Notes: generated by a model not told the origin, from the letters alone. A DNA stretch of 29,646 bases from Tupaia chinensis (GCF_000334495.1 NW_006159661.1:808147-837792); one strand, 5' to 3'; positions 1 through 25,492 are shown, counted from the first letter of the stretch. Numbers and translations are program-made.

Positions 1-310
1 GGAGTGGAGAGCCCAGAGGAGGGCGAGGAGCTCTAGGAAAACTGGGAGGAAACGCAGGGCCTTTGGGGAGAGGAGGAGGGGGAGGAGGCGCTCCATGAAA
101 AGGAACAGCAGGACCCTGCTGGAGTGGAGAGTCCAGAGGAGGAAAACTGGAAGGAAACATAACACCTCCTGGGAGAGGAGGAGGAGGAGGAGGGGGAAGC
201 GCTCCACAAAAACCAACAAGAGGAATCTGCTGAAGTGGAGAGTCCAGCTCAAGGGAGGTGTCAGCACTACAAAAGTCCAAAACGTCCTCCTCAGGTTTGT
301 GTGGATCAAG
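1..310 (-). CDS. Candidate minus-strand proline-rich repeat coding segment (…LDSPLQQIPLVGFCGALPPPPPPPLPGGVMFPSSFPPLDSPLQQGPAVPFHGAPPPPPPLPKGPAFPPSFPRAPRPPLGSPL…), truncated by window start
   Basis: Open minus-strand frame across the whole ~115-bp tandem repeat, with acceptor-like tatgtgtctctgaacag|CTT at about 311. Pyrimidine-rich strands are naturally stop-poor, so coding status is uncertain. Confidence 0.2.
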
Positions 311-340
311 CTGTTCAGAGACACATAACTTCAGGGATTT
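1..340. repeat. Tandem repeat, about 115-120 bp unit, 2.8 copies (motif CTGGAGTGGAGAGYCCAGAGGAGG...), purine-rich on the plus strand
   Basis: Units start at 1, 121 and 235. A relic of the motif (ctgagtggagagcccaagcc) lies at 625-645, on the far side of the SINE at 368-606. Confidence 0.7.
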
Positions 341-367
341 CATACCACAGGCAAATTCAAAAGATGG

Positions 368-606
368 GTCTGGGGGGCTAGAGGGTGACATAGCGGTTAT
401 GGCGCTGGACTCCCACGTGGCCAACTGTGGTTCAAGTTCCAGACCCTGTGGCTTGAAACTCACGCTAGGCGTGCGTGCGTGCGTGCCCAAAATCCCGGGA
501 GAAGAACAGAGAAGGAATTGTCTTCTCACTTGCTGTGCCTCTGGCTCTCTCTCTGTGTCGCTGGCCAGTGCATCTGCCCTAGGGCAAACATCTTTATGAA
601 AAACAG
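368..606 (+). mobile_element. tRNA-derived SINE, long subtype
   Basis: tRNA-like head (ctggactcccacgtggccaactgtggttcaagt), a central domain (gtgcgtgcccaaaatcccgggagaagaa) and a CT-rich tail with an A-run. Confidence 0.75.
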
Positions 607-1276
607 GTGGGTCCTGGGGAGACGTTCTGAGTGGAGAGCCCAAGCCAATGGAAATGTTGGTACTATTGGCAATCTCAAAAAAGCCAGACTGCTGGGGACC
701 CGGATGAGAACCAAAAAGAGAGCTATGAAGAGGTAAGGGGGGAGCACCCAGGGGAGCTGAATACCCAAGGCCAGCAGCCGAGAAAGGGCGAGAACCAGCT
801 GCTCCAGCCCCAAAAGAGAAGTTGGCAGCAGATGCCATTTTTGGTTGCATGGCTTTCATCAATGGTTTTGGAAGTTCTTTCTTTGTAAAGGAAGCAGTCT
901 GCTTCAAACCTAACGGTCCGTCCATCCCTGCTTGTCGGAGTGCTGGCTGTGAAGGAAGGCTGTGCCATTCAGCACATACAGGAACTGCTGGCTTAGAGGA
1001 TTTCGTTTTCCTTTTAGCCATGCCCTTCCGTTTGAATAAACCCAATCCTTCATTCCATTCAGGGGATGCTAAAAGAGGCTGCTGAGAAAAAAAAAATTAT
1101 TAGTGTAAGGAAAAGACAGAATAAAATGAACAAACATTCTTCCGAGTAGTCGACTTCCCAGCAGTCAAGCTTTTTTTTTAATCCCAGAGCATAATTCCCA
1201 GAATCAGAAACAACAGAGTCAGAGACACTGAAAATAATAAGAGCTATTCTATTCGGGATCATTTAAGGACAAGGTC

Positions 1277-5832: not shown

Positions 5833-5923
5833 CTTATGGTTCTACACCACATTTTTATAAATGTATGAATATTTTCATCAAGGAGACAATTGCTTTTCTT
5901 TTTTAAAAAATTTATTTGCCAAG

Positions 5924-6182
5924 ACCAGTAGTTAGCGTAATGGCTATGTTGCTGGAGTCCCATGTAGTCAACCATGGTTCGAGTCCTGGATCCAGCGGCT
6001 TAAACTCATGCCAGGCACATGTGCGTGCGTGCCCAAGATCCCAACAGGAGAATGGAGGAGAAGGGATTGTGGCGTGGCCATCCCCCCTGGGGGTGATTTC
6101 TCGCTTTCTGTCTGTCTCTCTCTGTCTTTCTGGTGAGTGCATGTGCCCTATAGCAAAAACCTCTCCAAAAAAAAAAAAAAAG
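5924..6182 (+). mobile_element. tRNA-derived SINE, long subtype, with about 17-bp TSD (aaaaatttatttgccaa)
   Basis: The direct repeat flanks the element at about 5907-5923 and 6183-6199. It inserted into the tail end of the neighbouring minus-orientation copy. Confidence 0.8.
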
Positions 6183-6192
6183 AAAAAAATTT

Positions 6193-6225
6193 ATTTGCCA
6201 AAGGTGCATATGCAGAGAGTCGGAG

Positions 6226-6262
<37 letters not shown>

Positions 6263-6548: not shown

Positions 6549-6668
6549 TTAACATTACCTGTGAAACACCGGGGTCTGGCTGCTCCTCCGGCCAGCTGAT
6601 ATATGGCAAGAAGTCCACATCTTCTTGGGCGATAAGGTCCGAAATATTTGGAATGTCACGAAAAGACT
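6549..6668 (-). CDS. Candidate VWA5-family exon (DDNESFRDIPNISDLIAQEDVDFLPYISWPEEQPDPGVSQ)
   Basis: Donor TTTCACAG|gtaatg is strong and the acceptor caatacag|GAT is moderate. 120 nt, open in phase 0, GC-rich and coding-like. No homology anchor. Confidence 0.4.
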
Positions 6669-7514
6669 CATTATCATCCTGTATTGAATCACAATTGGGT
6701 TAAGTCAAAAGAGATATTATTGAGTGATTACTACACTTTCTAAAGCTTTGTGGATGTTGGGTTTGGAATATGTTTGATTGGATGGTGTGTCCCTGTCATG
6801 AGTGTGACAGAAAGATGGGGAGTAGACAGATCCGTGCAGTTGGGTGGCTTTACTGTTCATGGAGCACTCACTGGGTGCTGAGCGCTGTGCTAAGTACATT
6901 TAAGATTTTCTTTTTCAACTTAACGAAGAAAAAGAGCCTCTCAAAACATAAAGAAAATCCAGGTCTTTCCAATTTTTTGAGGGTCTTGGATTAATACATG
7001 ATAAGTGCCAAATAGGTAACAAACTTGTTATAGCTTAAAAGTATAATTATAACTAATTAATAATGGTAAGATTAAAAATGATAATGTATGCAATTCATCT
7101 GGAGAGATTGTGGGAAGCCCTCATGCTGAGGGTCATCACAAATGGAGGCCCTGGCTCATGAGGCCTGTGTCTCTTTCCACCTCACCTTGTGTCATAGGCC
7201 ATTGGCATGGCATTGTCATTAACAATCAGAGCAGAAATAACTTTAAGTTTCTTTCTCCTTCAAAGAGAGAACCAGGCACTCCTTAAAGGGTCTTCAGGAC
7301 ACCATCCGCCCCAATCTCAGCCATGCCTGGCTCAAGGGCACACATGTACCCAACACATTCAGAGAGCTCTCTGGATGGGAACCCATAACCCTCGCAAATG
7401 TGTCAGTGTCACAGTGCTGTGTTACTACTGTGCTAATGCCCAACCCCCTACGTGTAACTTCTTTAATGTGTCAATAGAAATAAAATAATTTAACCATGAA
7501 TTAACAATACATAC

Positions 7515-7610
7515 CCTTTTCTCAACCGCTATGAAGCTTGTAAATTGTGTTATGAGAGAGTTTTCTTTACTGAGTTTAATAATCAGAGATTTCAAGATTT
7601 CTTTCTTCAT
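7515..7610 (-). CDS. VWA5-family gene exon (MKKEILKSLIIKLSKENSLITQFTSFIAVEKR)
   Basis: Acceptor ttttgttttattctatcctag|ATG and donor AAAAGG|gtatgt. 96 nt. Aligns to VWA5A DKKDALNLSLESGVISSFTAFIAINKE. Confidence 0.75.
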
Positions 7611-7694
7611 CTAGGATAGAATAAAACAAAATCATGTCCTGTTTTATTTACTTCAAGTCCTTTGTATGTGACCAATTAAGAGTGTATTAAATCA

Positions 7695-7938
7695 GAACCA
7701 GCAGACGGTGTAATGGTTGCGTTGCTGGACTCCCATAGTTGACCATGGTTTAAGTCCTGGACCCAGCAGTTTAAAATTCATGCTGGGCATGTGTGCGTGT
7801 GTGCCCAAGAGGAGACTAAAGGAGAAGGGATTGTGGCATGGCCATCTCCCCTGGGAGTGATTTCTTGCTTTCTGTCTCTGTCTCTCTGGTGACCACATGT
7901 GCTCTATAACAAAAATCTCTCTTAAAAAAAGAAAAAAA
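7695..7938 (+). mobile_element. tRNA-derived SINE, long subtype, with 16-bp TSD (agagtgtattaaatca)
   Basis: Flanking direct repeats at 7678-7693 and 7938-7953. Confidence 0.85.
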
Positions 7939-8689
7939 GAGTGTATTAAATCATCTAAAAAAGTATTTCACTAGGACAAGTAAATCACTTAAAAATTAGT
8001 ATTTCAAACTAAATATTGAACCAGCATCTTGCCTAAACATTTTATGTAGGTGACTCAGTGTTGCCTGCAAAATGGCATTAACCGATTTAGCTAAAACAAT
8101 AATTTGTGTTTATACAGCTCTCCTGGTTTACAAGGAGCACTGACGTGCGTGAGCTTCCTTATCCTTTCACAGTCTGGGGTCCCCATTTAATGCCAAGGAG
8201 TTGGAGAGGCAGAGTGACTTGTTCAGGATTGTTTGAGTCAGGGCTAGTCAGGTACTCCTCCTGCCCCCGCCTCACCCCAAGATAAAAAGGCCTTGAGCAA
8301 AACAACATGAAGGCTGCTAATGCAAGGGCTGTCGAGGCAGTGAGAGCACAAGATCACTTGTCACCTGCTGTGACTGTGAGGACACCAGGCTGCTGTGCGG
8401 CACACTGGACCTTCTTTAGGGAATGGCATTGGTAATGAGAGACCCGCTGGACCCTCGTGGTGGGCTGACTGAGCAGAATCCCCCGCCAGGATCCTTCTCA
8501 GCACAGGGGAGGGGGAGCAAGGCGGGTTTTGGCTCTACTCGTGTCCTCAAGCAGGACGCCACTGTCCTCACCTGAGCTTCTGCATCAGGAGATGGGAACA
8601 CTAGCATGACAGCATGGGAGAGCCAAGACTAGTCTCCCACGAGCACTTAGCGAGTGTTCTCTGAGCCCTCCTCCAACTTTGTTCCATGG

Positions 8690-8800
8690 GCAACATTATC
8701 ACAGAATTCTAGGGAAATCCCTGACATCTGTTCTTGATTCATTCAACAACCATTTATTGAGCTCTACCCCCCAAACACATACGTCACAGACATGGTGATG
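8690..8800 (-). mobile_element. MIR 3'-end fragment
   Basis: ttgattcattcaacaaccatttattgagc is the reverse complement of the MIR GCTCAATAAATG...TTGAATGAATCAA motif. Confidence 0.45.
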
Positions 8801-9350
8801 GTGCTCTTCAGGCAGGAGAAAGAAATGGGAGTGGGTAAGGGGGCTGGAGCATCTGCCCATGTAGCCGGATAGAGAAACCCATCAGGGTGGAAAAATTCCC
8901 CACCCAAGGTGATATAAGCAGATTAATGGGGGGATGTCCAGCTGATTAAGCCACATCTGATAGAGCCCGTGAGACTGAGCACAATCAGTGGGCCCAACCA
9001 ATGGTCAACCAACGCTACTTAGATTAAAAATTATAAATCTCACAGAATGTAGCTGCTGGGGCCTTCTGAGCCATTCTTTCTCTATCCGCTCAGGTCCACT
9101 CCTACCTCCTGGGAATGTACTTTCACTTTTACTTAATAAACTACCTTTTCCTTTTGATATTGGCTTGTTTTGTTCACTTTTTGGTTCAAAACAGCAGGAA
9201 CATGGATATCATCGCCAAAGCCATCTGGCAGCACTCTGACACCGCAATCTTCTCTATCCAGCTATTCTCAGGTTACATTTCCATAAATAAATTCATTTAA
9301 GAATGATCGAGAACAATGTATAATAGTTCTTTTTTATGTATAGAACTAAC

Positions 9351-9431
9351 CTCATGATTTGTTGCATTTTCATGGAGAATGCCATCTTCGTAATCTCTGA
9401 TTAGAGCTCGTGCTGTTAGTTTGTGAATCAT
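9351..9431 (-). CDS. VWA5-family gene exon (MIHKLTARALIRDYEDGILHENATNHE)
   Basis: Acceptor ttttttctcctttgctacttcaacacag|ATG and donor CATGAG|gttagt. 81 nt, phase 0. Aligns to VWA5A TIHRLAAKSLLQTKDMGLRE. Confidence 0.7.
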
Positions 9432-9491
9432 CTGTGTTGAAGTAGCAAAGGAGAAAAAATTACAGTGACTTCTAAGTAAAGACTTATGTAG

Positions 9492-9762
9492 GGAACAAGC
9501 AGTTAGCATAATGGCTATGTCGCTGGACTCCCACGTAGCCAACCGCGGTTCGCGTCCCGGACCAGGTGGCTTAAAACTCACGCTGGGCGTGTGTGCGTGC
9601 GTGCCCAAGATCCCGAGAGGAGAATGGAAGAGAAGGGATTGCGGCGTGACCATCCCCCCTGGGCGGTGATTTCTCGCTTTCTGTCTCTGTCTCTCTCTGT
9701 CTGTCTGGCGAGCACACGTGCCCTATAGTGAAAATCTCTCTCAAAAAAAAAAAAAAAAAAAA
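9492..9762 (+). mobile_element. tRNA-derived SINE, long subtype, with 13-bp TSD (aagacttatgtag)
   Basis: Near-consensus copy with an A21 tail. TSD at 9479-9491 and 9762-9774. Confidence 0.9.
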
Positions 9763-9837
9763 AGACTTATGTAGACCATTTTAAAATTGAGATATAATTT
9801 GCATATAATAGAATTCACCCTTTTCTTTTTTTAAATA

Positions 9838-10112
9838 GCCACAGGGCATTATATGTTTGCCAAAGAGACAGGGAGAAAATACCAACCCCCATGGGATGTG
9901 CTCATAACACAATCCCTTTTCCATTTTTCCATCCTGTCAGGGATGGAATGATGTGCGTGCGTGCCCAAGATCCTGAAAGGAGAACGGAGGATAAGGGATT
10001 GCAGCGTGGTCATCCCTCCTGGGGGTGATTTCTTGCTTTCTGTGTGTCTTTCTCTGTCTGTCTGGTGAGTGCTTGTGCCTTATAACAAAAAAAATCCAAA
10101 AAAAAAAAAAAA
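9838..10112. mobile_element. Two partial long-subtype SINEs in head-to-head inverted arrangement (9838-9950 minus, 9951-10112 plus)
   Basis: The minus-orientation 3' part abuts the plus-orientation central and tail part. Confidence 0.6.
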
Positions 10113-10378
10113 GAATTTTTGTCTTTTCTTGAGCTGCCGATAGGTTCATGTACCTACTATTTGAACAGAATCCCAACCTGTTTCCTGGCTTTAAGTTTCA
10201 AGCATATTTCCTTAGCATTTCTTTGATTTATTAAAGTTTAATCTGCTTTTCTTGAAATTAAAAAATATAGTAAAAAATACATTAAAAAAGATATTATCAT
10301 ATATATTATCACCAATAGATTGAAAAATGCTTCTCCTTTTTTTCTCCTCATCCCCTTATTTTAAGTTTTGAATCTTAC

Positions 10379-10459
10379 TGTTCCAGTTGTCTTCTGAAGC
10401 TCAGTAGTTGACACCATGGTACAAAATTCTTTCTCTTGAATTAATGCACGTAGGGTTGC
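10379..10459 (-). CDS. Candidate VWA5-family exon (ATLRALIQEKEFCTMVSTTELQKTTGT)
   Basis: Excellent acceptor cactttttcccatttcag|GCA and donor AACA|gtaaga. 81 nt, open in phase 0 and phase-compatible with neighbours. No clear homology anchor. Confidence 0.4.
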
Positions 10460-10699
10460 CTGAAATGGGAAAAAGTGAATTCCTAATTAGCTTTCTACTT
10501 CACGGTGTCTTGGTTAACTTAACAGCATTTTTTTCAGTGATTTCCTCTCCTCTTTCAATGGGAGTTAGAAGATTCCCCAGTGGCCCTGCTGTTTTCTCAG
10601 GAGAAAATCTGCCAATGAGAGAGAGGAAAGAACAAAAGGAAAACTATTAGGAAAATACATTGGTCTTCCCAACGTAGAAAAAGCTTTGCTGCTTCTTAC

Positions 10700-10870
10700 C
10701 TGGGTACAATGAGGAATAAATCCATAGACAAGGAGTCGATCGTTGTGGAATAAGGACTGCACCTGGGCTGGGGCCTGCAGGGGCTCCTGGGCATTTGCAC
10801 TGAATTGTTGCCACTTGACGGAGACAGAGTGGCAACTTGGAGAACGAACCCTGGTCATTTGGTCTTCTAT
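10700..10870 (-). CDS. VWA5-family gene exon (IEDQMTRVRSPSCHSVSVKWQQFSANAQEPLQAPAQVQSLFHNDRLLVYGFIPHCTQ)
   Basis: Donor CCCAG|gtaaga is strong. The acceptor was chosen as ctctctataaatag|ATA to keep phase 0 and is less certain. 171 nt. Aligns to VWA5A ...LKRSLQPVVEDVSLSWHLPPGLSAKMLSPEQTVIFRGQRLISYAQL. Confidence 0.6.
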
Positions 10871-11039
10871 CTATTTATAGAGAGAGAATTATTTCTCTTT
10901 TAATGTTATATCCAGATAATAGTTAGTTAGCACTTGAAGCACAGATTCTATCCTTTGGGAGATTTTTATAGCCTTTGGTTTGTTCCCTCCTTCCTGCTAC
11001 AGCTTATTAAAAGAGAAAGATTATAATTATTATTGTTAT

Positions 11040-11278
11040 TGCCAGAGGGGGGATGCACTTTCCAGATGGAAAGAGAGAGGGGAAGAAAGCAGCCCTGAAT
11101 ACAGTGAGTAGAATACATGCCGCAGTCCCTTCTCCCTCATTTTTCTATCCTGTTGGGATTTGGGGCACATGGGTACATGAGTCTGGTGTGTTTTTTAAGC
11201 TGCCACATCCATGATTTGAACCCACAAGGTTGGCCACATGGGATCCAGCTCTCTTACCCATCAGGCCATGGGCAGACC
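11040..11278 (-). mobile_element. tRNA-derived SINE, long subtype
   Basis: Reverse complement of the family. Confidence 0.75.
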
Positions 11279-11475
11279 TTCCAAAAATTACTAGCACTAT
11301 CATATCATTTAAATTTACAGAGGATCCTAAAATTGTCCCATTAGCTAATTACTAATATGCAACTTTGATATGTATAGGTTTTAATTCTGAAAATTAATAC
11401 TACAAAAGACTTGAATATGCATTTTCCCAAGAAGACATACAACTAGCCAATAAGCACAAGAAAAGATGCTCACCA

Positions 11476-11722
11476 GGGGCCAGAAGGTGACATGGTGGTT
11501 AAGGTGCTAGACTCCCACATGGCCAACTGCAGTCTGAGTTCTGGGCCTGGCGGCTTGACATCATGCTGGGGGTGTGTGTGTGCGTGAGTGCCTAAAGTCC
11601 CAAGAGGAGAGTGGAAGAGAAGGGATTGTGGTGTGGCCATTCCCCCCGGAGACTGATTTCTCATTCTCCTTCTCACTGTATCTCTTGGTGAGCACACATA
11701 CCCTCTAGCAAAATTTAAAAAT
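11476..11722 (+). mobile_element. tRNA-derived SINE, long subtype
   Basis: Family structure. Confidence 0.8.
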
Positions 11723-11898
11723 TAGAAAAGTTCTGAAGATAAATGGTGGTGATGTTTGTAGAACATCGTGACTGTACTTAATGTCACTGAACCATACATA
11801 CACTTAAACATGGTTAAAATGGTAAATTTGATGTATGTTTTACCACAATAAAAAAATTAATCCCTGCGAAACATATATAATACTTTAGTATAAAAAGC

Positions 11899-12045
11899 TG
11901 GGGCCAGCAGATGGCATGCTGGTTAAGGTGCTGGACTCCCACATGGCTGACTACAGTTCAAGTCCCGGACCTGGCAACTTGCTTTGTCACTTTCCTTCTC
12001 TCTCTCTGTCTCTCTCTGAGCAAATAAAGAAATAGTAAATACAAT
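11899..12045 (+). mobile_element. tRNA-derived SINE, short subtype
   Basis: Head plus a CT-rich tail. Confidence 0.75.
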
Positions 12046-12336
12046 TCAATAATTATTTTTTTAAAAATAGAATTATATTTTTAAAAGTTAATCCATGACA
12101 GTTTATGAGACAGAAACCAAACTGTTAAGTAGAAGAATGACCTGATCAAATATTCACTGAGTCCCTGCCAGGTGCCAGGAGAACACTAGCTAAGGGTGGG
12201 GGGGGTCATGCCTTTGGCAGTTTTATGCCTCCCTTTTCCATTCCAGAAAACACAGAAGTTACTGTCACTTAGACTTGTAAGATAGTATTTCTACATGTTA
12301 ACACAAAACTAGAAAGAAGATGTTTAAAAGACTTAC

Positions 12337-12436
12337 CTGTTTTTTCCAACTATGTGTGGATTTTGAGTTAAAATACTCGAATACTCCGGCACCACATTGG
12401 GACAAAGTCCTTAAGACATGGCGATTTGCTGTAGAA
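12337..12436 (-). CDS. VWA5-family gene exon ((G)STANRHVLRTLSQCGAGVFEYFNSKSTHSWKKQ)
   Basis: Acceptor gtgatcag|T and perfect donor CAG|gtaagt. 100 nt (1 + 33 codons) completes the GG left by the TDG exon. QCGAGVFEYF aligns to VWA5A ASGGTSEFI. Confidence 0.7.
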
Positions 12437-12971
12437 CTGATCACAATTCACATGTTTTAATTTTCAAGAAATATTAGAAACATTTGTGAAGTACACGTTA
12501 ACAACGTTGGGAAGCTCAAAACTCAACAGAAGATTGAAGAGACATCTCATGAAGAAGAATTTAGTCTTCTGTGGCTGAGGTTGAATATAAAACTGATAAC
12601 ACACAGAAAGCAACTCCAGGATTTTTGCTTAATTTAATCTTACACAAATCCAAGGACCTCTTTATCTTTCACAACAGAAAAAAAAGTAGAAATGCTTGAT
12701 TTCTAGATTATTTTAGGAGGAAGTCGATGGTTTTTTAAAAAGCCCCAGAAATATTAGAATACTAGTAAAGATATCAACCTATTTTCGGTGAATGTCAAAG
12801 TTATCTGAATCTGAGCCCCGAGGTCAAGATTGCACAGAGTTAAAGTCTTTGTCTTAACATATGATATATATTTACATAGTAAAAGGTATAAAAAAGTGAC
12901 TCTCTAACATAGAACATGTCTGATATTTAAATAAGTATCGCAGTATTTCTCATTAACAATTGTACAATTAC

Positions 12972-13211
12972 TTTTTTTTTAGAGGTTTTTGCTATAAGGC
13001 ACGTGTGCTCTCCAGAAAGAGAGACAGATACAGAAAGCGAGAAATCACCCCCCAGTGGGGATGGCCATCCTGCAATCCCTTCTCCTCCATTCTCTCGAGA
13101 TCTTGGGCACGCATGCACATGCACCTGGTGTGAGTTTAAGTCTGGGACTCGAACCATGGTCAACTACACGGGAGTCCAGCGACATAGCCATTATGCTATC
13201 TGCTGGTCCTC
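12972..13211 (-). mobile_element. tRNA-derived SINE, long subtype, with about 18-bp TSD (aacaattgtacaattact)
   Basis: TSD at 12954-12971 and 13213-13230. Confidence 0.85.
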
Positions 13212-13340
13212 AACAATTGTACAATTACTAAAAACTCTTTTCTTAGAGGGAATCCTACTAAAATATTAAAGAAACAAGTGAAAAAAGCTCTTTCAAAAAA
13301 AGAGCTTAAAAAAGAGAACGAGAGCGAGCTTAAGGGCGGC

Positions 13341-13560
13341 CTCCATGGCCTGGTTATTAAGGTAGTTGGATCCCACATGACTGATCATATGCTTTGAATC
13401 CTGGCTCCAGTTGCTTGAAAACCATACTAGGCATGTGTACCCCAAATCCTGACGGGGTGGAGAAGTGGAGGAGAAGGGCCTGTGGCATGACCGTGTCCCA
13501 TTGGGGAGTGCTTTCTCTCTCTGGCAGCATGCACTCACTCCGGCAAATTAAAAAAAAAGA
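13341..13560 (+). mobile_element. Divergent long-subtype SINE
   Basis: Older copy with the family architecture. Confidence 0.55.
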
Positions 13561-13602
13561 AAGAGAGAGAGTTTAAGGAAATTATTCTTAAAAACGTTTT
13601 AG

Positions 13603-13912
13603 CAGGACCAGCAGTTAGTGTAATGGCTATGTCGCTGGACTCCCACGTAGTGGACTGTGATTTGAGTCCCGGACCTGGTGGCTTAAACTTACACCGGGCA
13701 CATGTGCGTGCATGCCCAAGATCCCGAGAGGAGAATGGAGGAGAAGGGATTGCAGTGTGGCCATCCCCCCTGGGGGGGTGATTTCTCGCTTTCTGTCTCT
13801 CTGTCTCTGTCTCTGTCTGTCTGGCGAGCGCACGTGCCCTATAGTAAAAAAACAAAAACAAAAACAAAAAAACAAACAAACAAAAAAAACACAACTCTCC
13901 AAAAAAAAAAAA
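13603..13912 (+). mobile_element. tRNA-derived SINE, long subtype, with extended A-rich (CAAAA)n tail
   Basis: Near-consensus copy. The left breakpoint of the tandem duplication lies at about 13780 inside it. Confidence 0.85.
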
Positions 13913-13944
13913 CCGAATTCACCATTATTTAAAAATTTTTAAAA

Positions 13945-14200
13945 ATTCTTTCTTATTCATGACAGAGCATGTGCACACACCCTTGAGAGTAAAACAGAGA
14001 GAGAGAGAGATAAGTACCCTCCACAGAATCTGGTCATGACAAGAGCCTCTTCTTCCAGTCCTCCATACTGTAGACCTTGGGCACTTGAACATGTACCAGG
14101 TGTTTCAGGCTGACTGGCCAGGAATTCAAACCTCAGTTGCCACATGGGGTCCAGCTTCTATCGAGTAGCACATTACTGCTACGCCACAGAGCCATCCCCA
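13945..14200 (-). mobile_element. tRNA-derived SINE, long subtype (duplicated at 16337-16592)
   Basis: Reverse complement of the family. Confidence 0.75.
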
Positions 14201-14339
14201 GATTTGTTTTTATCCTGAAAATTAACTGGCTCTGATTATAACATTGACCAGACACTGCTTTAGACAGAGTTGGCATTTTATGGATGAGTGAGCAAAGCTT
14301 ATGGGAATTTCTTTGGGATCCTGGCTGTGGTTGCCCAAA

Positions 14340-14455
14340 GTCACAGCTAGTGAAAATGGAATTGAAGTATACAGTTTATTTTGGTGCAAAAAAAATTGAA
14401 ATCCATGCATGATTTTTTATAATAGGCATTTTCCATGAATGTTCTACAGATCCCT
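14340..14455. mobile_element. Tc1/mariner-like DNA transposon fragment (duplicated at 16732-16847)
   Basis: ITR-like tattttggtgcaaaaaaaattgaaatccatgcatgattttttataataggcattttccatgaa. Relatives at 15150-15215, 15880-15935, 20640-20745 and 22895-22965. Confidence 0.4.
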
Positions 14456-14552
14456 TATATCAGCTTTGAACCTTTCAAAAGTCCTGTGCAGACCAGCGAA
14501 GAGACCAACTAGCGGGCTCTCCATATCTGTGCGACCAGATTGCGGGACTTAC

Positions 14553-14740
14553 CCGACACCGCAGGTGAACAGCCTGGTGTGATGGGCATTTTTTTTCACG
14601 AGCTGCAAGGTCAGGCTCTCGTCCTGGAGGTGCCCATCAGATACAAGGAGAATGTTCCGCAACCCTTCCGAAGGGTACAGTAAACCTAAATATCGCAGTG
14701 TTTTCCAGAAGTCTGTGTTCCCCATGCTAGGGGTAGCAGA
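14553..14740 (-). CDS. VWA5-family gene exon, vWA TDG...GIG segment, duplicate copy 1
   Basis: Acceptor ttccttcatttccttcag|TCT and donor GG|gtaagt. 188 nt (62 codons + 2). Aligns to VWA5A ...GGTEILAPLQNIYRGPSIPGHPLQLFVFTDGEVTDTFSVIKEVRINRQKHRCFSFGIGEG. Contains an A8 homopolymer (gtgaaaaaaaatgcc). Confidence 0.8.
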
Positions 14741-14845
14741 CTGAAGGAAATGAAGGAAAAGGTTATTTACTTCTTTTTGAGTATACATGCCACTGACTGC
14801 AGTAATTTACTGAAGCATTTCTTCTGCTGTTTTTTACATTTTCAA

Positions 14846-15061
14846 AGGTTTTTACCATAGGGTGCACGCACTCACCAGAGAGAGACAGAGACAGTGAAAT
14901 GGAAAGTGAGAAATCAACCTCAGAGGTGGCAGAGGGATGCGACGTTGCAATCCCTTCTCCTCCATTCTCCTTTTCAGATTTTGGGCACACGTGAATGATT
15001 AAATTACAGTCTTCCATGTAGAAGTCTAGTGCCTTAACCACTATGCCAAGTACTGGCCCCC
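14846..15061 (-). mobile_element. tRNA-derived SINE, long subtype, internally shortened (duplicated at 17238-17453)
   Basis: Reverse complement of the family. Confidence 0.65.
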
Positions 15062-15376
15062 ATGAAGCATGTTTTCTAGTGAGGGTTAGGTATATACCGC
15101 CATTGAAAAGAAGGATTTTTCTTTTTTTTTCAAATTATACATTTGTGGAAAAATTATACATGGGTCTTCAAAAAGTCCAAGGAAAATGCATAATTATGAA
15201 AAAAAATCTATACATTAATTTCATTTTTCCACAAATATTTTGAAGCCCCCTGTACTATATTATTTTATTTTAGTACATGTTACAGAGTAATTATAATATC
15301 ATTACTTGGAGCTTATTTGCTTATTTAGTTTTTTTTTTTAAGGATCATTTGTTTAATTTAATTCATTAATTTTTTA

Positions 15377-15612
15377 GAGAGGTTTTTGCTATAGGGCACA
15401 TGTGCTTGTCAGAGAGACAGAGACAGAAAGCGAGAAATCATCTCCCTTGGGGGACAGTAGGCTGCAATCCTTTCTTTTCCATTCTCCTCTCAGGATTTTG
15501 GGCATGCACACACACACACGTGTTGAGTTTTAAGTCACTGGGTCCAGGACTTGAACCATGGTTGAGTACATGGGAGTTCAGTGCATAACCATTATGCCAT
15601 CTGCTGGTCACT
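15377..15612 (-). mobile_element. tRNA-derived SINE, long subtype (duplicated at 17769-18004)
   Basis: Reverse complement of the family. Confidence 0.8.
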
Positions 15613-15642
15613 TAATTTTATTTTTTATTATTGTTTTTAAAT

Positions 15643-15787
15643 TTGCTATAGGATACACATGCTCACCAGAGACAGACACACACAGAGAGAGGGAAAGTGA
15701 GAAAGCAAGCTTCCAGGTCCAAGAACTGAACTGCAGTTGGCCACATGAGAGTCCAGCACCTCAACCACTATGCCAACTGCTGGACCT
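15643..15787 (-). mobile_element. tRNA-derived SINE, short subtype (duplicated at 18035-18179)
   Basis: Reverse complement of the short subtype. Confidence 0.75.
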
Positions 15788-16171
15788 GTGCTTTTTTAGT
15801 TTTCAAAGAATCATGAGGAGACTTCAAGAAGTTTGTGAGAAAAGTATAATTAATAAATGAATTTTAGTGCCAAAATATTTTTTTTTTTTCACAGCATGCA
15901 TTGTCCACAAACTTTTTGAAGATCCCCACATTTTATACTTATAGGAAGAAGTGTCCCATCAAAGCATCCCTGGGTTTGCCAGGCTGGACTGTGGGGGTGC
16001 CTGGTCATACCCAACTTGCTCTATTTTGAGAGGTAAAAAAGAAGGGACAGAAGAAAACTTTCCAAAACTGTTAATGGTACTTGCATTTGGGTGGTAGGGG
16101 TATGGATGATCTTTATCTCTATAGTTTTAAATTTCTAATTCTCCTTTAGTGAGTTTATATCACTTTTATGA

Positions 16172-18583
16172 GATTTCTCGCTTTCTGTCTCTCTGTCTCT
16201 GTCTCTGTCTGTCTGGCGAGCGCACGTGCCCTATAGTAAAAAAACAAAAACAAAAACAAAAAAACAAACAAACAAAAAAAACACAACTCTCCAAAAAAAA
16301 AAAACCGAATTCACCATTATTTAAAAATTTTTAAAAATTCTTTCTTATTCATGACAGAGCATGTGCACACACCCTTGAGAGTAAAACAGAGAGAGAGAGA
16401 GATAAGTACCCTCCACAGAATCTGGTCATGACAAGAGCCTCTTCTTCCAGTCCTCCATACTGTAGACCTTGGGCACTTGAACATGTACCAGGTGTTTCAG
16501 GCTGACTGGCCAGGAATTCAAACCTCAGTTGCCACATGGGGTCCAGCTTCTATCGAGTAGCACATTACTGCTACGCCACAGAGCCATCCCCAGATTTGTT
16601 TTTATCCTGAAAATTAACTGGCTCTGATTATAACATTGACCAGACACTGCTTTAGACAGAGTTGGCATTTTATGGATGAGTGAGCAAAGCTTATGGGAAT
16701 TTCTTTGGGATCCTGGCTGTGGTTGCCCAAAGTCACAGCTAGTGAAAATGGAATTGAAGTATACAGTTTATTTTGGTGCAAAAAAAATTGAAATCCATGC
16801 ATGATTTTTTATAATAGGCATTTTCCATGAATGTTCTACAGATCCCTTATATCAGCTTTGAACCTTTCAAAAGTCCTGTGCAGACCAGCGAAGAGACCAA
16901 CTAGCGGGCTCTCCATATCTGTGCGACCAGATTGCGGGACTTACCCGACACCGCAGGTGAACAGCCTGGTGTGATGGGCATTTTTTTTCACGAGCTGCAA
17001 GGTCAGGCTCTCGTCCTGGAGGTGCCCATCAGATACAAGGAGAATGTTCCGCAACCCTTCCGAAGGGTACAGTAAACCTAAATATCGCAGTGTTTTCCAG
17101 AAGTCTGTGTTCCCCATGCTAGGGGTAGCAGACTGAAGGAAATGAAGGAAAAGGTTATTTACTTCTTTTTGAGTATACATGCCACTGACTGCAGTAATTT
17201 ACTGAAGCATTTCTTCTGCTGTTTTTTACATTTTCAAAGGTTTTTACCATAGGGTGCACGCACTCACCAGAGAGAGACAGAGACAGTGAAATGGAAAGTG
17301 AGAAATCAACCTCAGAGGTGGCAGAGGGATGCGACGTTGCAATCCCTTCTCCTCCATTCTCCTTTTCAGATTTTGGGCACACGTGAATGATTAAATTACA
17401 GTCTTCCATGTAGAAGTCTAGTGCCTTAACCACTATGCCAAGTACTGGCCCCCATGAAGCATGTTTTCTAGTGAGGGTTAGGTATATACCGCCATTGAAA
17501 AGAAGGATTTTTCTTTTTTTTTCAAATTATACATTTGTGGAAAAATTATACATGGGTCTTCAAAAAGTCCAAGGAAAATGCATAATTATGAAAAAAAATC
17601 TATACATTAATTTCATTTTTCCACAAATATTTTGAAGCCCCCTGTACTATATTATTTTATTTTAGTACATGTTACAGAGTAATTATAATATCATTACTTG
17701 GAGCTTATTTGCTTATTTAGTTTTTTTTTTTAAGGATCATTTGTTTAATTTAATTCATTAATTTTTTAGAGAGGTTTTTGCTATAGGGCACATGTGCTTG
17801 TCAGAGAGACAGAGACAGAAAGCGAGAAATCATCTCCCTTGGGGGACAGTAGGCTGCAATCCTTTCTTTTCCATTCTCCTCTCAGGATTTTGGGCATGCA
17901 CACACACACACGTGTTGAGTTTTAAGTCACTGGGTCCAGGACTTGAACCATGGTTGAGTACATGGGAGTTCAGTGCATAACCATTATGCCATCTGCTGGT
18001 CACTTAATTTTATTTTTTATTATTGTTTTTAAATTTGCTATAGGATACACATGCTCACCAGAGACAGACACACACAGAGAGAGGGAAAGTGAGAAAGCAA
18101 GCTTCCAGGTCCAAGAACTGAACTGCAGTTGGCCACATGAGAGTCCAGCACCTCAACCACTATGCCAACTGCTGGACCTGTGCTTTTTTAGTTTTCAAAG
18201 AATCATGAGGAGACTTCAAGAAGTTTGTGAGAAAAGTATAATTAATAAATGAATTTTAGTGCCAAAATATGTTGAAATGTATGCATAGTTTTTTTTTTTT
18301 TCACAGCATGCATTGTCCACAAACTTTTTGAAGATCCCCACATTTTATACTTATAGGAAGAAGTGTCCCATCAAAGCATCCCTGGGTTTGCCAGGCTGGA
18401 CTGTGGGGGTGCCTGGTCATACCCAACTTGCTCTATTTTGAGAGGTAAAAAAGAAGGGACAGAAGAAAACTTTCCAAAACTGTTAATGGTACTTGCATTT
18501 GGGTGGTAGGGGTATGGATGATCTTTATCTCTATAGTTTTAAATTTCTAATTCTCCTTTAGTGAGTTTATATCACTTTTATGA
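16172..18583. repeat. Tandem segmental duplication, unit 2 (about 2.41 kb)
   Basis: Near-identical to unit 1, except an 18-bp indel (gttgaaatgtatgcatag at about 18270, missing from unit 1 at about 15878). It ends at ...cacttttatga|atcatataaag. Confidence 0.9.
16945..17132 (-). CDS. VWA5-family gene exon, vWA TDG...GIG segment, duplicate copy 2 (SATPSMGNTDFWKTLRYLGLLYPSEGLRNILLVSDGHLQDESLTLQLVKKNAHHTRLFTCGVG)
   Basis: Identical to 14553-14740, offset +2392, inside tandem duplication unit 2. Same acceptor ttccttcatttccttcag|TCT and donor GG|gtaagt. 188 nt, phase 0 to +2. Confidence 0.7.
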
Positions 18584-18698
18584 ATCATATAAAGAGCCCA
18601 TCAACCTACAAAAACCCAAATGGAAGTTAAGTCCTGGACAGAATTACAAAAGCTTGATAGAAAAAGATTGAGAGATGGAAGAAGTTTCTTTTACTCAC

Positions 18699-18766
18699 CA
18701 TAATGAACTCTGTTGGTGTGTCATTGTTTGTGATATACTTAGGGTATGAAAATAACTCCTTGTAAC
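18699..18766 (-). CDS. VWA5-family gene exon (G)YKELFSYPKYITNNDTPTEFIM
   Basis: Acceptor tctatcttattacacag|GT and donor ATTATG|gtgagt. 68 nt (2 + 22 codons) restores the frame between the MIDAS exon (+1) and the TDG exon (phase 0). Similar to VWA5A SYEACFPESVKYTQQTMEEAL. Confidence 0.6.
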
Positions 18767-18884
18767 CTGTGTAATAAGATAGACTGTCATGAAATATGCA
18801 CTTGATTAGCCACCAACAAACAACATGCTACTTCATACCACCACTGCTATCAAGTATTTATACCTCACCCGCTACGGAAGAGGC

Positions 18885-19095
18885 ACCGGTTTAAATCCTT
18901 TGTATACATTAGCTTGGTCCTCACAACAGCACCGTGAGGTAGGGACTATACCTCTCAGGTGACACAGGAAACTGAGGCACGCAAAGTTCAAGCAGCCCTC
19001 CCAAGGGCAACACACAGAGCTTGTGGGCAGCACAGTTGTGGCTCTAGAGTTCTTGTTCTGAAGCTTCCCACGGGGCTACCTCTCACTCCACAGGT
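18885..19095 (+). mobile_element. MIR (mammalian-wide interspersed repeat) fragment
   Basis: Contains the MIR core ...caggtgacacaggaaactgaggcacgcaaagttcaagcagccctcccaagggcaacacacag... Confidence 0.7.
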
Positions 19096-19175
19096 CAGGG
19101 CGGGCCTCAGCAGTCACATAGAGCATGCTCATTTGAAGAAGAAATCGCGCCTAGGGCTGGAGCCACAGTGCTCAC

Positions 19176-19371
19176 CTGTGCCAAACTGGACAAGGTTCAC
19201 TCTTTGCTTCTCACCCACCAACGACAGCGCGTATAAGGCGATTTTCTTGGCCTGCATGAATGTCACACCCTCCATGGAATTGGAGCAGTCGAGGCAAATA
19301 ATCACTTCACTGCTGTTGGCTAGCTCAGGGAGGGCAAGGTCAAGATCAGGTTGAAAGACAAGCATGCAAGC
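19176..19371 (-). CDS. VWA5-family gene exon, start of vWA domain with MIDAS motif (ACMLVFQPDLDLALPELANSSEVIICLDCSNSMEGVTFMQAKKIALYALSLVGEKQRVNLVQFGTG)
   Basis: Acceptor tttcatttttctcctttcag|GCT and donor ACAG|gtgagc. 196 nt, phase 0 to +1. Contains D-C-S-N-S-M (DxSxS MIDAS motif). Aligns to VWA5A ...MVSFYPNIPEDQPSNTCGEFIFLMDRSGSM...NIYGFG. Confidence 0.8.
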
Positions 19372-19789
19372 CTGAAAGGAGAAAAATGAAACTTATCAGA
19401 ACTTAAACTGGAAAATATCTACTTGCAGAATTCTAAAACTTTCTAGTAAGGTAAACTAATGCTGTAAAAACAAAAAGAATAAGACAGCCTACGAGTTCAA
19501 ACAACAAGATAGGCTACTAGCTCAAATAAAAAGTAGAGAGTCAGAGCTGGGGTTTCCAGTGTGTAGGACATAAATTCTAGAAAGGTCAAGAATTAACATA
19601 GAATTAATTCTGAAAAATCATATAGCATCAACGTTGCCTGTAGAATGAGTAAATAATGTCACACACCTATACACACTATTCCTTAATGAATGCTGTTATG
19701 CTAACACATACCTTGGTTTTATTAATTAACTGATAGTTAAAGTATAACTACTATCAAGTAAGTTTTAGTTTATTTATTTATTTAATTTG

Positions 19790-20320
19790 CCAGAGAGCAT
19801 ATACACTCACTAGAGAGAGACAGAGAGATATAGAGAGAAGGAGCAGGGAAAAGTACCCCGCCAGTGGGGTGCGGTCACACTGCAATTGCTTCTCCACCAT
19901 TTCTGCATCCTAGACAGATTTGGGGCGTTCATGCACATGTACCCAGTGGTTTTTTTCTTTTTCTTTTTTTAAAGATTTTTTGCCATAGGGCACATGTGCT
20001 CCCAGAAAGAGACAAAGAGAGAAACATTAAGAAGTCCCCTCCTTCTCACCCACTACCCCCCATGGGGGATAACTACACCACAATCCTTCTTTTCTGTTCT
20101 CCTCTCAGGTTTTTGGCATGCATGCTCACATGACCAGTGTGTTTTTCAGGCTGCCAGGTCTAGGACTCGAACCACAGAGTTGGCCATGTGGGATCCAGCA
20201 CCTTAACCATCACCACGCCACCTGCTGGCCTGCCCAGTGTGTTTTCCAAGTTGCTACGTCCAAGACTCAAAACACACAGTTGATCATGTGGGATCGGGCA
20301 CTCTTAACCACTAGGTAACC
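19790..20320 (-). mobile_element. Cluster of long-subtype SINE copies (partial 19790-19950, full 19978-20230, plus a partial tandem copy of the tRNA head at 20231-20320)
   Basis: Reverse complement of the family. The head segment is repeated twice in tandem. Confidence 0.7.
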
Positions 20321-20443
20321 TCGATTTTTATTTTATTTTAAGAAGCAATGCTCTGTTGCTGTCACACAAAATGGTCTTACGGCCATAAATATTCTTTATT
20401 TGTTTTTCCAGTACCAATATTTTTAAAGTCTAAGAATTCTATA

Positions 20444-20623
20444 GGCCCAGCTGTGGTGGTAGCACACTACTGTGACACTATACTGGGGTCACATGAGGTC
20501 TGGGTTTGATTCCTGATCCAACCCATAAGCTAGGTGTGACAGCATGTCTATCATTTTTAGCAACTAAGGAGGCTGAGGCAGGATAACTATGTATGACAGG
20601 GAGACCCTGTTAAAAAAAAAAAA
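20444..20623 (+). mobile_element. 7SL-derived (B1/Alu-like) SINE
   Basis: Contains ggcccagctgtggtggtagcacac...ggaggctgaggcagga...gagaccctgtt followed by an A-run. Confidence 0.6.
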
Positions 20624-21025
20624 GTTCAAGATAAATGGAATTCATTGAAATATCACTTCATATTAGTGAAAAAATACTGCAATCTGTCCATAGCTTTTCA
20701 TAATATGCATTTTTCGTGAACTTTTTGAAGACATCTTGTACAAACCAATATAATGTCTGATTTTCTTTTTGGTGGGAATGAAAATAATAACTATAGTTTT
20801 TATAGGAATATAGGCCACAGGGTTTTGCTTGTTTGTTTGTTTTTTAAAACCTCAGAAGTTTGTCATGCTTGATATAAGTATTTTTAATTACATAAGTATA
20901 TTTTAAATACATTACATTTAGTAAATGCTAGTTTTTCAAGACAATAATATCTAAATTTAAATAACCTATTTATTCTGAAACAGTTTTCTAACACCTCCTA
21001 GTTCTAAGTAAGAAGGAGTATATAC

Positions 21026-21163
21026 CTCACTTTCTTTTTCTGGATGTTTTTCAACCCACATTCTTGGGAGATAAGCATCAGACAAACTGATGTGGAGAGA
21101 GAATCCACTGCTGTCCAGGGAGCTGCCTTCCACGGTGCTGATCACAGCTCTGCAGTCTGTGCT
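21026..21163 (-). CDS. VWA5-family gene exon (STDCRAVISTVEGSSLDSSGFSLHISLSDAYLPRMWVEKHPEKESE)
   Basis: Acceptor cctttgtttcgcag|AGC and donor AGTGAG|gtatat. 138 nt, 46 codons, no stops, phase 0 to 0. Loose similarity to the VWA5A linker CPLSPTEYLGEDKTSAQVSLAAG...NEVHTP. Phase-compatible with the next exon. Confidence 0.55.
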
Positions 21164-21360
21164 CTGCGAAACAAAGGACCATACGAAAGTGTAAGTAATG
21201 GGGCAATACCATATTACTCACTTGCACTTACCTGCCAAGGAGCAAACCCTTGCATAATTTATGTAACTCTAAGAATCGACGATGTTGTAATAAATTCTAA
21301 AATTATGAAATGTCAGCTTTTAAAAAAAATTTTATTTAACTGTATTATTATTATTATTTT

Positions 21361-21494
21361 CCAGTTTGATCAGAAAGAGAGAGAGAAAGATAGAGAGGGA
21401 AAGTGAGAAAGCAAGCTCTAGGTGCAGGACTCGAACCATGTCGGCCATGTGGGAGTCCAGTGCCTCCAACCACCACATCACCTGCTGGTCCCCC
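21361..21494 (-). mobile_element. tRNA-derived SINE, short subtype
   Basis: Reverse complement of the short subtype. Confidence 0.75.
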
Positions 21495-22360
21495 TGAAAT
21501 GTCAGTTTTAGAAGACCATTATCATAGCAGGTATCCTTCTGAAATTCTAAAGTTGATTTACATAGTCAAATTTAAGTAAGTCGAAGACAATCTCATTCTC
21601 TGGATCCAAAGATTGTAGATCCATGTATTCAGTTAGAGTTATCTGGAGACAGGAAAGGACAGCAAATAATCACAGGATTATTTTAACATCAATTTTATTT
21701 ATCAGACAATACATTCACATGGTTTAAGAGTGAAATAATGGTATCAGCAACCTCTAGTAAGAAGGTCTGTCCCGACCCTTAGATCTCCTCATACCACTTG
21801 CCAGAGATAGCAAATCACTTTGAATATTCGAGCTATTTCTCTGGCAATGCCTCCAAAGTTTCAAATAATAATTTTCTTTGGGTTGCTTTCTTTCTTTCTT
21901 TTAAAAGTTTTCTTTCTTTCTAAAAGTTTTCTTTCTTTCTTTTTTTTTTTTTAAGTTTATCTATGTATTTCCTTCTTGAGGAAGAAAGGGGGAGAGAAAG
22001 AGAGATAACCTTAACAGAATCTTCACACTATAATCCTGTACTGTTTGATAATAAAATTCATGTTAAAATAAAAGATCTTAAGAAGTCAGAGATTCACTAA
22101 CCTTTTGTTTCAGTTTGTGTGTATCACTGGAAATGGATTCAATCACATATGGCATCTCTATAGACATAGTCAAGGAGAAGCTACCAAAAATGAAGAAAAG
22201 TTAGCCTAATATGTTAAGTTTCTATCTCAAGTTGTTTCAAATAATTTAAAATGAATATTTAAACCATAAAATAAAACTAATGTCCATTGAATGATTGACA
22301 AGTTTTTGTAAATTACAGCGCTTGTGTTACAAGTTTGTTGAGTGTTGTGTATTTTTTTTT

Positions 22361-22377
22361 GGGGGGGGGGGGGGGGG
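22361..22377. repeat. G17 homopolymer
   Basis: Run of 17 G preceded by T9, abutting the poly-A side of a minus-orientation SINE. Confidence 0.9.
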
Positions 22378-22600
22378 AGAGATTTTTTGCTAGGGTGCAT
22401 ATGCTTGCCAGAGACACAGAGAGAGAAAGTGAGAAATCAGCCCTCAGGAGGATGGCTATGCCACAATCTCTTCTCCTTCACACTCCTCTTGGGATTTTGG
22501 GTACACAAACACACATGCTTGGTGTGAGTTTCAAGTCCCTGGAACTGGGATTCAACCATATGGGAGTTCAGGGCCTTAACCACTATACCACCTGCTGGCC
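22378..22600 (-). mobile_element. tRNA-derived SINE, long subtype
   Basis: Reverse complement of the family. A G17 homopolymer abuts its left end. Confidence 0.75.
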
Positions 22601-23331
22601 TCATGATCGACAAGTTTTAAATTTACTAACCTTTGCTTTGTTCCTATTTCCTTTATACAAATCTTCTCTACTGTATCCTGTTAAAAGAAAAAAAATATAT
22701 ATATATACATGACTGACTATTAGTTTCAGAATGAGACTCTAAACTGAACATCATCTTAGCAAGGCCACAACTGACAGCAGCCATAAAACAGCTGGTTTCA
22801 CTTCTACGCAGTGGAATACACACATACTATACACATTGTATATGGGGGACTTCAGAGAGTTTGTGGGAAAATGGAATTTTAGTACAAGCTTATTTTAGAA
22901 CAATAAATTGAAATCCATACATTATTTTTTTGTAATATGCATTTTTCATGACCTTTTTGAAAACTATATATGTGTGTGTGTATGTGTGTGTATTTACACA
23001 GCAAGTAGTCTGGAAGGACATAAACTAAAGCGTTCATCAGTGGCTCTTTCTGGGCAATGGAATTAAGGATAATTTAATTTTCTTCTTCTTTTGGCTTATT
23101 TGTACATGATGAACATGTAGTACAGATATACAATTTTTTGAATGACCAGACAGAATAAAAGGTTGAACATGTAAGTATCTTTTATTCTTTTAATTTTATA
23201 GCCATCATTTACATGTGTATAAATGCATAAATGCCAATAGAACTGACTTTCTGCCACAGACATTAGATCTCTTTTCTTCCCTATGCATACAGACCCACCT
23301 AAGTGCTTCTTCCAATCTGAAGCATACAAAC

Positions 23332-23496
23332 CTGAAGGTTTTCATTCAAAGCCTTGTTCTGTTGCCAGGGTGCCACGGTGGCGGGCATGAAGAAGACAGC
23401 AACGGAGCCTTGGATGCTGAGTTCTGTGATGTAGGTAATTTTGATGAGAACTTTAGCCTTAGGGGGCAAGTTTCCAACACTTACAGTAAAAACATC
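23332..23496 (-). CDS. VWA5-family gene exon, VIT domain part (DVFTVSVGNLPPKAKVLIKITYITELSIQGSVAVFFMPATVAPWQQNKALNENLQ)
   Basis: Minus-strand acceptor tttctgtttcag|GAT and donor CAG|gtttgt. 165 nt, phase 0 to 0. The peptide aligns with the remembered VWA5A VIT segment RDVFSCNVGNLQPGSKAAVTLKYVQELPLEADGALRFVLPAVLNPRYQ. Confidence 0.75.
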
Positions 23497-23620
23497 CTGA
23501 AACAGAAACATATGACTTGCTCACATCCCCAAATCATATCCTTTCTTTGCAAGTTAACCACTCAGTATTCTTTACACAACTTGAACCATAATCTGCAAGT
23601 TCTTCAGGAAATGATAATCG

Positions 23621-23815
23621 GGCCAGGTGGTGATACAGCAGTGATGCAACTGGACCCTCATGGGAAGAAAAGTCCTAGGTTTGTGTCCCAGGATCTCCCT
23701 GAGCATGCCCGTGATCTAGGCCAGCTGAAGCTGGGGTTGGATTGCAATATGAAGACCTTGGTGGGATGCCTGTTGTTTTTCTCTTTCTCTCTAAATGAAT
23801 GAATGAATGAATAAA
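23621..23815 (+). mobile_element. SINE, variant subtype with (GAAT)n tail
   Basis: tRNA-like head gggccaggtggtgatacagcagtgatgcaactggaccctcatggg, ending in aatgaatgaatgaatgaataaaa. Confidence 0.6.
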
Positions 23816-23823
23816 AGTCCTTA

Positions 23824-24090
23824 TAATAGTGGTTGAGCACGGTGCAGAGGAAGCTGGATTCCATATTGCCAACCAGGGTTTCAGTTCCAGCCCTGGCAGT
23901 TTACATGCTGAGCAAATGTATGTGTGTCCAGGATCCTGACAGGGTGGAGACTTGGAGAAAAAATTATTGTGGTCTGACCAGGCCCTGCTGTGGGGGAAGG
24001 GAGAGGGGAGGTGGTGCTTTCTCTTACTTCCTCTCTTCTCCTCTTTTCTCTCTTCTCTGTATGTGCACATGCCCTCTGGCATTTTTTTAA
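23824..24090 (+). mobile_element. Divergent long-subtype SINE
   Basis: Family architecture, diverged. Confidence 0.55.
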
Positions 24091-24097
24091 AAGGTTG

Positions 24098-24255
24098 GGG
24101 TGGCAGGTGGTGTGGTGGTTAAGATGCTGGACTCCCACATGGTCAACCATGGTTCGAGTCCCAGACATGGTGGGTTGCTTTCTCACTTTCCCTTTCTCTC
24201 TCTCTGTCTCTACCTGGTCAAATTAGTAATAATAATAATAACAATAATGATAATA
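24098..24255 (+). mobile_element. tRNA-derived SINE, short subtype, with (TAA)n-like tail
   Basis: Head plus a CT-rich tail and aataataataataacaataatgataatag. Confidence 0.8.
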
Positions 24256-24599
24256 GAACCACAAGACACATTTTAGGTGCTAAAGGAGAATCCTGGAGCC
24301 ATCCACAGTGGTGGGGATGGGGTGATGTCTGCAGGAGATGCAGGGAGAGGAGGCCTGTTGGCAGCTGAACTGAGGACTATCACCCCACGGACTCCGCACC
24401 AGTGGCCTCACATACAGTGGTTCTGTAGCACAGACGGCCTCCACACATCCCCTTTCTTGAAGCACCTGTGGCCTCCCAGCCTTCACAGCATCCAGCTCCA
24501 GTTCCACCAGCAGCTGTAGAACTAGAGCTGCTTTCGCTAAGTGGATGCTCACTTAGCTATTTTACCCTATAGTAAATGTATCTTTTTATTTATTTATTT

Positions 24600-25128: not shown

Positions 25129-25309
25129 TATCCTTTTTTTTTTTTTTTTTTTTAAGTTATTTAGTTTTCTTTTAACGGAGTATTGATAATTACCATAATG
25201 TGACTAGCTAAGGCAGAAAAAAAGAGGTTGAATGTATCTTTTTGCTGATACCTACATTTTTGAGACCCTCAAAAATCCCTGACTATGCTCATCATTTCAG
25301 CCCTTTTTT

Positions 25310-25451
25310 TTTTTAGAGAGAGGTTTTTGCTATAGGGTACATGTGCTCACCAGAAAGACAGAGACCGAGAGATATAAAGTGAGAAATCCCCCTCCCCCCG
25401 GAGGATGGCCACGCCACAATCCCTTCTCTTCCACTCTCCTCTTGGGATCTT

Positions 25452-25492
<41 letters not shown>

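Follow-up and report, generated by a model that had tools for sequence, protein, structure and literature searches.

The window analysed in this work, a 29,646-nt stretch of the Tupaia chinensis assembly (GCF_000334495.1, NW_006159661.1:808147-837792), carries on its minus strand an internal part of the gene for PARP4 (poly(ADP-ribose) polymerase 4, or vault PARP), an assignment to which we give a probability of about 0.96. Thirteen complete exons are followed by a probable fourteenth one that reaches the window edge. One of the complete exons, 188 nt in length, is present twice within a head-to-tail duplication of 2.4 kb, and a copy of a short interspersed element (SINE) lies inside the frame of the last exon. 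PARP4 is a well-known gene, and finding it here adds in itself nothing new; the duplicated exon, which would break the frame, and the in-frame SINE may be relevant to the evolution of PARP4 and to the assembly quality of this genome.

Exon chain on the minus strand

A preliminary description, made from the sequence alone, had listed eleven exons by their lengths and ascribed them to a gene with VIT and vWA domains. All minus-strand AG...GT segments of these eleven lengths with at least one open frame were enumerated and then filtered by reading phase, which left a single phase-consistent chain; the lengths, the AG/GT borders and the compatible phases were all recovered. The chain consists of the segments 23496-23332 (165 nt), 21163-21026 (138 nt), 19371-19176 (196 nt), 18766-18699 (68 nt), 17132-16945 (188 nt), 12436-12337 (100 nt), 10870-10700 (171 nt), 10459-10379 (81 nt), 9431-9351 (81 nt), 7610-7515 (96 nt) and 6678-6559 (120 nt), and its concatenation (1404 nt) is open and encodes 468 amino acids. 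The structure is real, far beyond chance. The DCSNSM, IHKLTARALI and SFIAVEK segments were found where they had been placed (19290-19273, 9428-9399 and 7538-7518, respectively). Among the vWA motifs, GVG is present and is split between the 188-nt and 100-nt exons, whereas the supposed TDG reads SDG, as part of VSDGH. Pfam analysis of the eleven-exon product bore out both the vWA domain (VWA, E 1.2e-15) and the VIT segment, of which the tail is present: residues 1-22 of the product correspond to the final 22 positions of the VIT model. The view that both ends of this multi-exon gene lie outside the window also holds, as no exon is present in 23497-29646 and the 3' exon runs off position 1, and so does the remark that the open reading frames (ORFs) of the window are mostly SINE-encoded: of 30 ORFs with 90 or more amino acids, 21 overlap SINE-like DNA. 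The last listed exon stops at 6559, and the end point of 6549 given previously lies 10 nt beyond the true one.

One correction concerns the junction between the first two exons of this chain, which is not real, since two further exons lie between them and are contained in a spliced RNA contig. The contig, L001, belongs to the Logan assembly of run SRR31578205 and is 2731 nt long; its ORF, P0008, was one of the matches of the protein search described below and shows no difference from the window in several exons. L001 aligns to the window as five blocks split by introns and is therefore spliced RNA; it comes from the organism of the window or from one very close to it. P0008 has 42 extra residues at the junction in question, and the exons encoding them were located by tblastn of P0008 and P0050 together with blastn of L001. 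The first of the two, exon 2 of the corrected model (22631..22677, minus strand; 47 nt, phase 0 in and 2 out), encodes DTVEKICIKEIGTKQ, has AG/GT borders, matches L001 base for base and is identical to human PARP4 at 15 of 15 residues. Exon 3 (22102..22180, minus strand; 79 nt, phase 2 in and 0 out) encodes SFSLTMSIEMPYVIESISSDTHKLKQK, with AG/GT borders, a match to L001 and 24 of 27 residues identical to human PARP4. Their omission was not visible by phase because the two lengths add up to 126 nt and the frame is kept; exons that jointly preserve the frame escape a phase check, which is a pitfall of by-eye reconstruction.

Spliced exons 1-5 (625 nt) correspond to positions 1761-2385 of L001 at 623 of the 625 positions, both mismatches being synonymous. 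Four splice junctions of the gene are directly observed in this alignment, which agrees with the borders of exons 1-5 and contradicts the direct joining of the first two previously listed exons. The contig also reads past the donor of exon 5: positions 2188-2731 correspond to 19373-18838 of the window and include 338 nt of intron, which is either a retained intron or pre-mRNA. A single 8-nt indel separates L001 from the window in this intron stretch and suggests a different individual or haplotype.

The full in-window model comprises 14 minus-strand exons with AG at all acceptors, GT at all 13 available donors, consistent phases and an open product of 870 amino acids. The eleven segments of the chain above are its exons 1 and 4 to 13. 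Exon 1 (phase 0) supplies the final part of the VIT domain (DVFTVSVGNLPPKAKVLIKITY...), recognized by Pfam as a VIT tail, corresponds to human residues 712-766 with 51 of 55 residues identical, and is present in L001, as are exons 4 and 5. The vWA domain begins in exon 5, in which the DxSxS element of the metal ion-dependent adhesion site (MIDAS) is encoded as DCSNS at 19290-19276. Exon 6 (phase 1) is identical to human PARP4 at 17 of 23 residues. Exon 7, taken as the upstream copy of the 188-nt exon (16945..17132), provides the MIDAS threonine (GNTD) and aspartate (VSDGH) and shares 51 of 62 residues with the human protein; the second copy, at 14553..14740 on the same strand, has identical sequence and splice sites. 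Exon 8 is in phase 2 and is followed by exons 9 and 10, by exon 11 with the IHKLTARALI segment, by exon 12 with SFIAVEK, and by exon 13, which closes the ITIH-like region (...EDVDFLPYISW...). The probable exon 14 (1..1081) is in phase 0 and open to the window edge. At the 5' side, residues 400-545 of P0008 gave only noise in a sensitive tblastn against 23497-29646, and the exon preceding exon 1 lies past position 29646.

Identity of the gene and its relatives

Protein searches identify the gene. Fifty-one matches at E <= 1e-20 were obtained in a search of 5.8 billion proteins (best E 3.3e-173), and every gene-identifying name among them is PARP4, the others being generic labels; VWA5A does not occur. 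In a PDB sequence search, residues 1-503 of the corrected product align with residues 712-1215 of human PARP4 (the 1724-aa chain of entries 11jf, 9bw6 and 9bw7) at E 6.7e-289 with a single one-residue gap. Identity is 429 of 504 positions (85%), varies from 70 to 100% per exon, and is interrupted by neither frameshifts nor stops. Pfam detects the vWA domain in the same product (VWA, E 3.8e-15). No MIDAS element is missing, the set comprising DCSNS at residues 171-175, GNTD at 238-241 and VSDGH at 264-268 (in-window numbering), which align with their equivalents in human PARP4 and with the solved bacterial vWA protein 8s05; this suggests a predicted capacity for metal-dependent ligand binding. 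Upstream of the part shared with the window, P0008 contains the PARP catalytic domain (PF00644, E 2.1e-41), PARP_reg and a complete VIT domain (E 3.7e-41). Because these domains and the exons of the window are joined in one ORF, the exons belong to the PARP-domain protein PARP4.

In the colinear block the product shares with human PARP4 the VIT tail, the DxSxS/T/D MIDAS and the IHKL(A/T)ARALIRDYEDGILHEN and SF(V/I)AVEKRD segments. The probable exon that follows, at the position of human exon 30, is large, proline- and serine-rich and poorly conserved. In contrast to the human gene, the locus studied here reads DCSNS where the human protein has DCSSS, is rich in a non-Alu SINE family (27% of the window), has the 188-nt exon twice in this assembly, and contains in the probable exon 30 counterpart about 81 SINE-derived codons as well as a tandem 35-residue proline-rich unit. 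Taken with the 85% identity to human PARP4, the non-Alu SINE points to a placental mammal.

Among the minor components of vaults, PARP4 alone is an enzyme, and its N-terminal PARP1-like part (BRCT, WGR and HD-ART) carries the ADP-ribosyltransferase activity (PMC10450202, PMC12280208). The central ITIH-like block, in which VIT is packed with vWA, resembles ITIH1 and integrin; it was proposed to serve protein-protein or cargo interactions (PMC10450202). It is followed by a long disordered linker and a C-terminal helical domain, MINT/MVPID (PMC10450202), by which PARP4 docks on MVP inside the vault cage (PMC12280208). The linker exon was proposed to contact pathogen factors (PMC4038475). PARP4 is a mono-ADP-ribosyltransferase whose N-terminal part transfers ADP-ribose, and the window encodes the second half of the central block together with, probably, the start of the linker. 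The function is taken from the literature; the exon structure, the identity of the gene and the four splice junctions are results of this analysis. The 13 complete exons (23496 to 6559) provide the end of VIT, the vWA domain with its MIDAS and the rest of the ITIH-like region, equivalent to human residues 712-1215, and exon 14 would start, from position 1081, the disordered linker (human exon 30) toward the C-terminal vault-binding domain.

The label originally attached to the gene, that of a VWA5A/VWA5B-like gene with VIT and vWA but no PARP domain, whether paralogue or diverged orthologue, has next to no probability left. The window does encode a VIT tail and a vWA domain with MIDAS, and VWA5A (BCSC-1), VWA5B1 and VWA5B2 have the same ITIH-like VIT + vWA architecture, with a fold reported to be near the central region of PARP4 (PMC10450202). 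The resemblance to VWA5A stated in the preliminary description is explained by this common region, and "paralogue of VWA5A" is loosely true in this sense, whereas the gene assignment fails: the domain architecture led to a paralogue instead of the true gene. Pfam returned the vWA and VIT-tail matches expected of the concatenated translation, but none of the 51 protein matches is named VWA5A; the alignment with human PARP4 runs without rearrangement; and the transcript encodes a PARP catalytic domain, which the three VWA5 paralogues lack. VWA5A/VWA5B was rejected on the protein search, the PDB alignment and the RNA contig, the comparison being made without direct alignment to a VWA5A sequence. 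The inter-alpha-trypsin inhibitor heavy chains (ITIH1-6) likewise combine VIT with a downstream vWA domain that bears a MIDAS, and the crystal structure of ITIH1 (6FPY) superposes on the central region of PARP4 (PMC10450202); unlike PARP4, they are secreted plasma proteins with other downstream sequence, and they were found neither among the matches at E <= 1e-20 nor in the PDB sequence search.

A slim chance attaches to the view that the locus is an unprocessed duplicated copy of PARP4, that is, a pseudogene and not the functional gene. Several features would fit it: the frame is broken if both copies of the 188-nt exon are used, a SINE sits inside the last exon, and primate genomes carry "PARP4-like" copies, the fragmentary primate matches including Pan sequence under the name PARP4-like and an unnamed human one (hCG1793351). 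Against it, each of the 13 complete exons has an open frame and canonical splice sites, identity to the human protein is high and even from exon to exon, and RNA is spliced at these very sites with only two synonymous differences in 625 nt. A number of observations weigh against the assignment to PARP4. None of the PARP catalytic, BRCT and MVP-interaction domains falls within the 29.6-kb window, and it is one RNA contig, together with orthology, that links them to the exons described here; the RNA spans exons 1-5 and none of exons 6-14. With both copies of the 188-nt exon spliced in, a stop follows at in-window residue 312, because 188 is not divisible by 3; skipping both copies also breaks the frame. 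The translation of exon 14 has no homologue in a word-indexed search of the 5.8 billion proteins and no match in PDB, human PARP4 included, even at E 10, and an exhaustive HMMER search of 1.84 billion representatives returned only short SINE-overlapping ORFs and no PARP4. Its first 68 residues have a weak similarity, of 43% identity, to Pan PARP4-like (QPLLVSSEWQEL...). The failure of these searches would be accounted for by a counterpart of human exon 30, the largest PARP4 exon (about 360 aa), which is disordered, evolves under positive selection and varies in length (Daugherty et al., PMC4038475).

Tandem duplication around the 188-nt exon

The two copies of the 188-nt exon belong to a head-to-tail duplication at 13780..18583, composed of unit A (13780-16171, 2392 bp) and unit B (16172-18583, 2412 bp), each with one exon copy (14740-14553 and 17132-16945, respectively) flanked by the same splice sites. 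Bird PARP4 matches both copies equally. No substitutions separate the units in 2393 aligned bp; they differ solely by a 20-bp indel beside a T run, with GTTGAAATGTATGCATAGTT occurring in unit B only (18271-18290). The junction 16171|16172 reads ...CACTTTTATGA|GATTTCTCGC..., head to tail and with no spacer.

The duplication is either a young real event or an assembly artefact, and we lean slightly to the artefact because the remaining gene looks intact and expressed. In the artefactual case, for example, two haplotypes differing by the 20-bp indel would have been placed end to end or an overlap mis-joined, and the gene would have one 188-nt exon and an intron 7 of 2.1 kb. Such an origin would account for units that differ by nothing except an indel next to a homopolymer, for the exact head-to-tail junction, and for the fully functional appearance of the rest of the gene. 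On the other hand, the window is not interrupted by any N gap, the order at the breakpoints is simply L-U-U-R, as in a true tandem duplication, and haplotypes about 0.2% apart, as the window is from the RNA contig, would give a few substitutions in 2.4 kb. If the duplication is true, transcripts use one copy only or become frameshifted, and the use of both copies would make this a natural loss-of-function or polymorphic allele of PARP4.

SINE-mediated unequal crossing-over was considered as the origin of the duplication and rejected, as no homology was found between its flanks. Independent genomic or RNA sequence for this stretch was not found: for three ORFs of the window, one of which crosses the unit junction, no exact product is on record, and the JGI metagenome contigs lack the 25-mer that closes both units.

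Probable exon 14 and its SINE

The acceptor of exon 14 follows a long pyrimidine tract and is a tandem NAGNAG (CAGCAG, 1078-1086), with the exon starting at 1081 or 1078. The exon is open for 360 codons to position 1, and its product is rich in proline (18%), serine and leucine. By position and composition it is probably the counterpart of human exon 30, its 3' extent being inferred. The choice within the NAGNAG could add or drop one glutamine.

A nearly full-length SINE copy lies within the frame of exon 14 at 365..619, on the plus strand and thus antisense to PARP4. The element itself occupies about 375-607 and is flanked by TGGGTCTGGGG (365-375) and TGGGTCCTGGGG (608-619), plausibly target-site duplications. 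The spacing of the flanks is 243 nt, or 81 codons, without a stop, and the SINE-derived codons correspond to about residues 153-236 of the exon 14 product. The SINE is either coding or spliced out. Few stops occur in its antisense frame because the region is pyrimidine-rich, and the same frame is open in another copy in the window (e.g., ORF 9297-9653); its openness is therefore weak evidence for translation. The HMMER search mentioned above gave 19 matches, all short SINE ORFs aligned with exon 14 residues 149-257 and overlapping the SINE-derived stretch; the clusters of ten of them were examined, and all derive from ENA metagenomes. If the SINE is coding, it would represent a transposon-driven change of length in a segment engaged in a host-virus "arms race". 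The combined scenario, in which the duplication is real and very young and doubles a vWA exon, and the SINE adds about 81 in-frame codons to the exon 30 counterpart, is tentative and on balance doubtful.

Downstream of the SINE in the same exon, two tandem units of about 105 nt (35-247) are 77% identical to each other and encode 35-residue proline-rich repeats (LDSPLQQ...PPPPPP...). The repeat array may extend past the window edge.

The SINE family to which the copy in exon 14 belongs is about 280 bp long, with a CT-rich segment ahead of the A tail, and occupies 39 intervals, about 27% of the window; examples are found at 5880-6215, 9470-9770, 13560-13900 and 28300-28620. Rfam and ARAGORN found nothing in the window and did not recognize this family. 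The introns of PARP4 also contain perfect or near-perfect dinucleotide microsatellites, namely (GT)17 at 1755-1789, (AG)15 at 6230-6259 and (AC)19 at 25454-25492.

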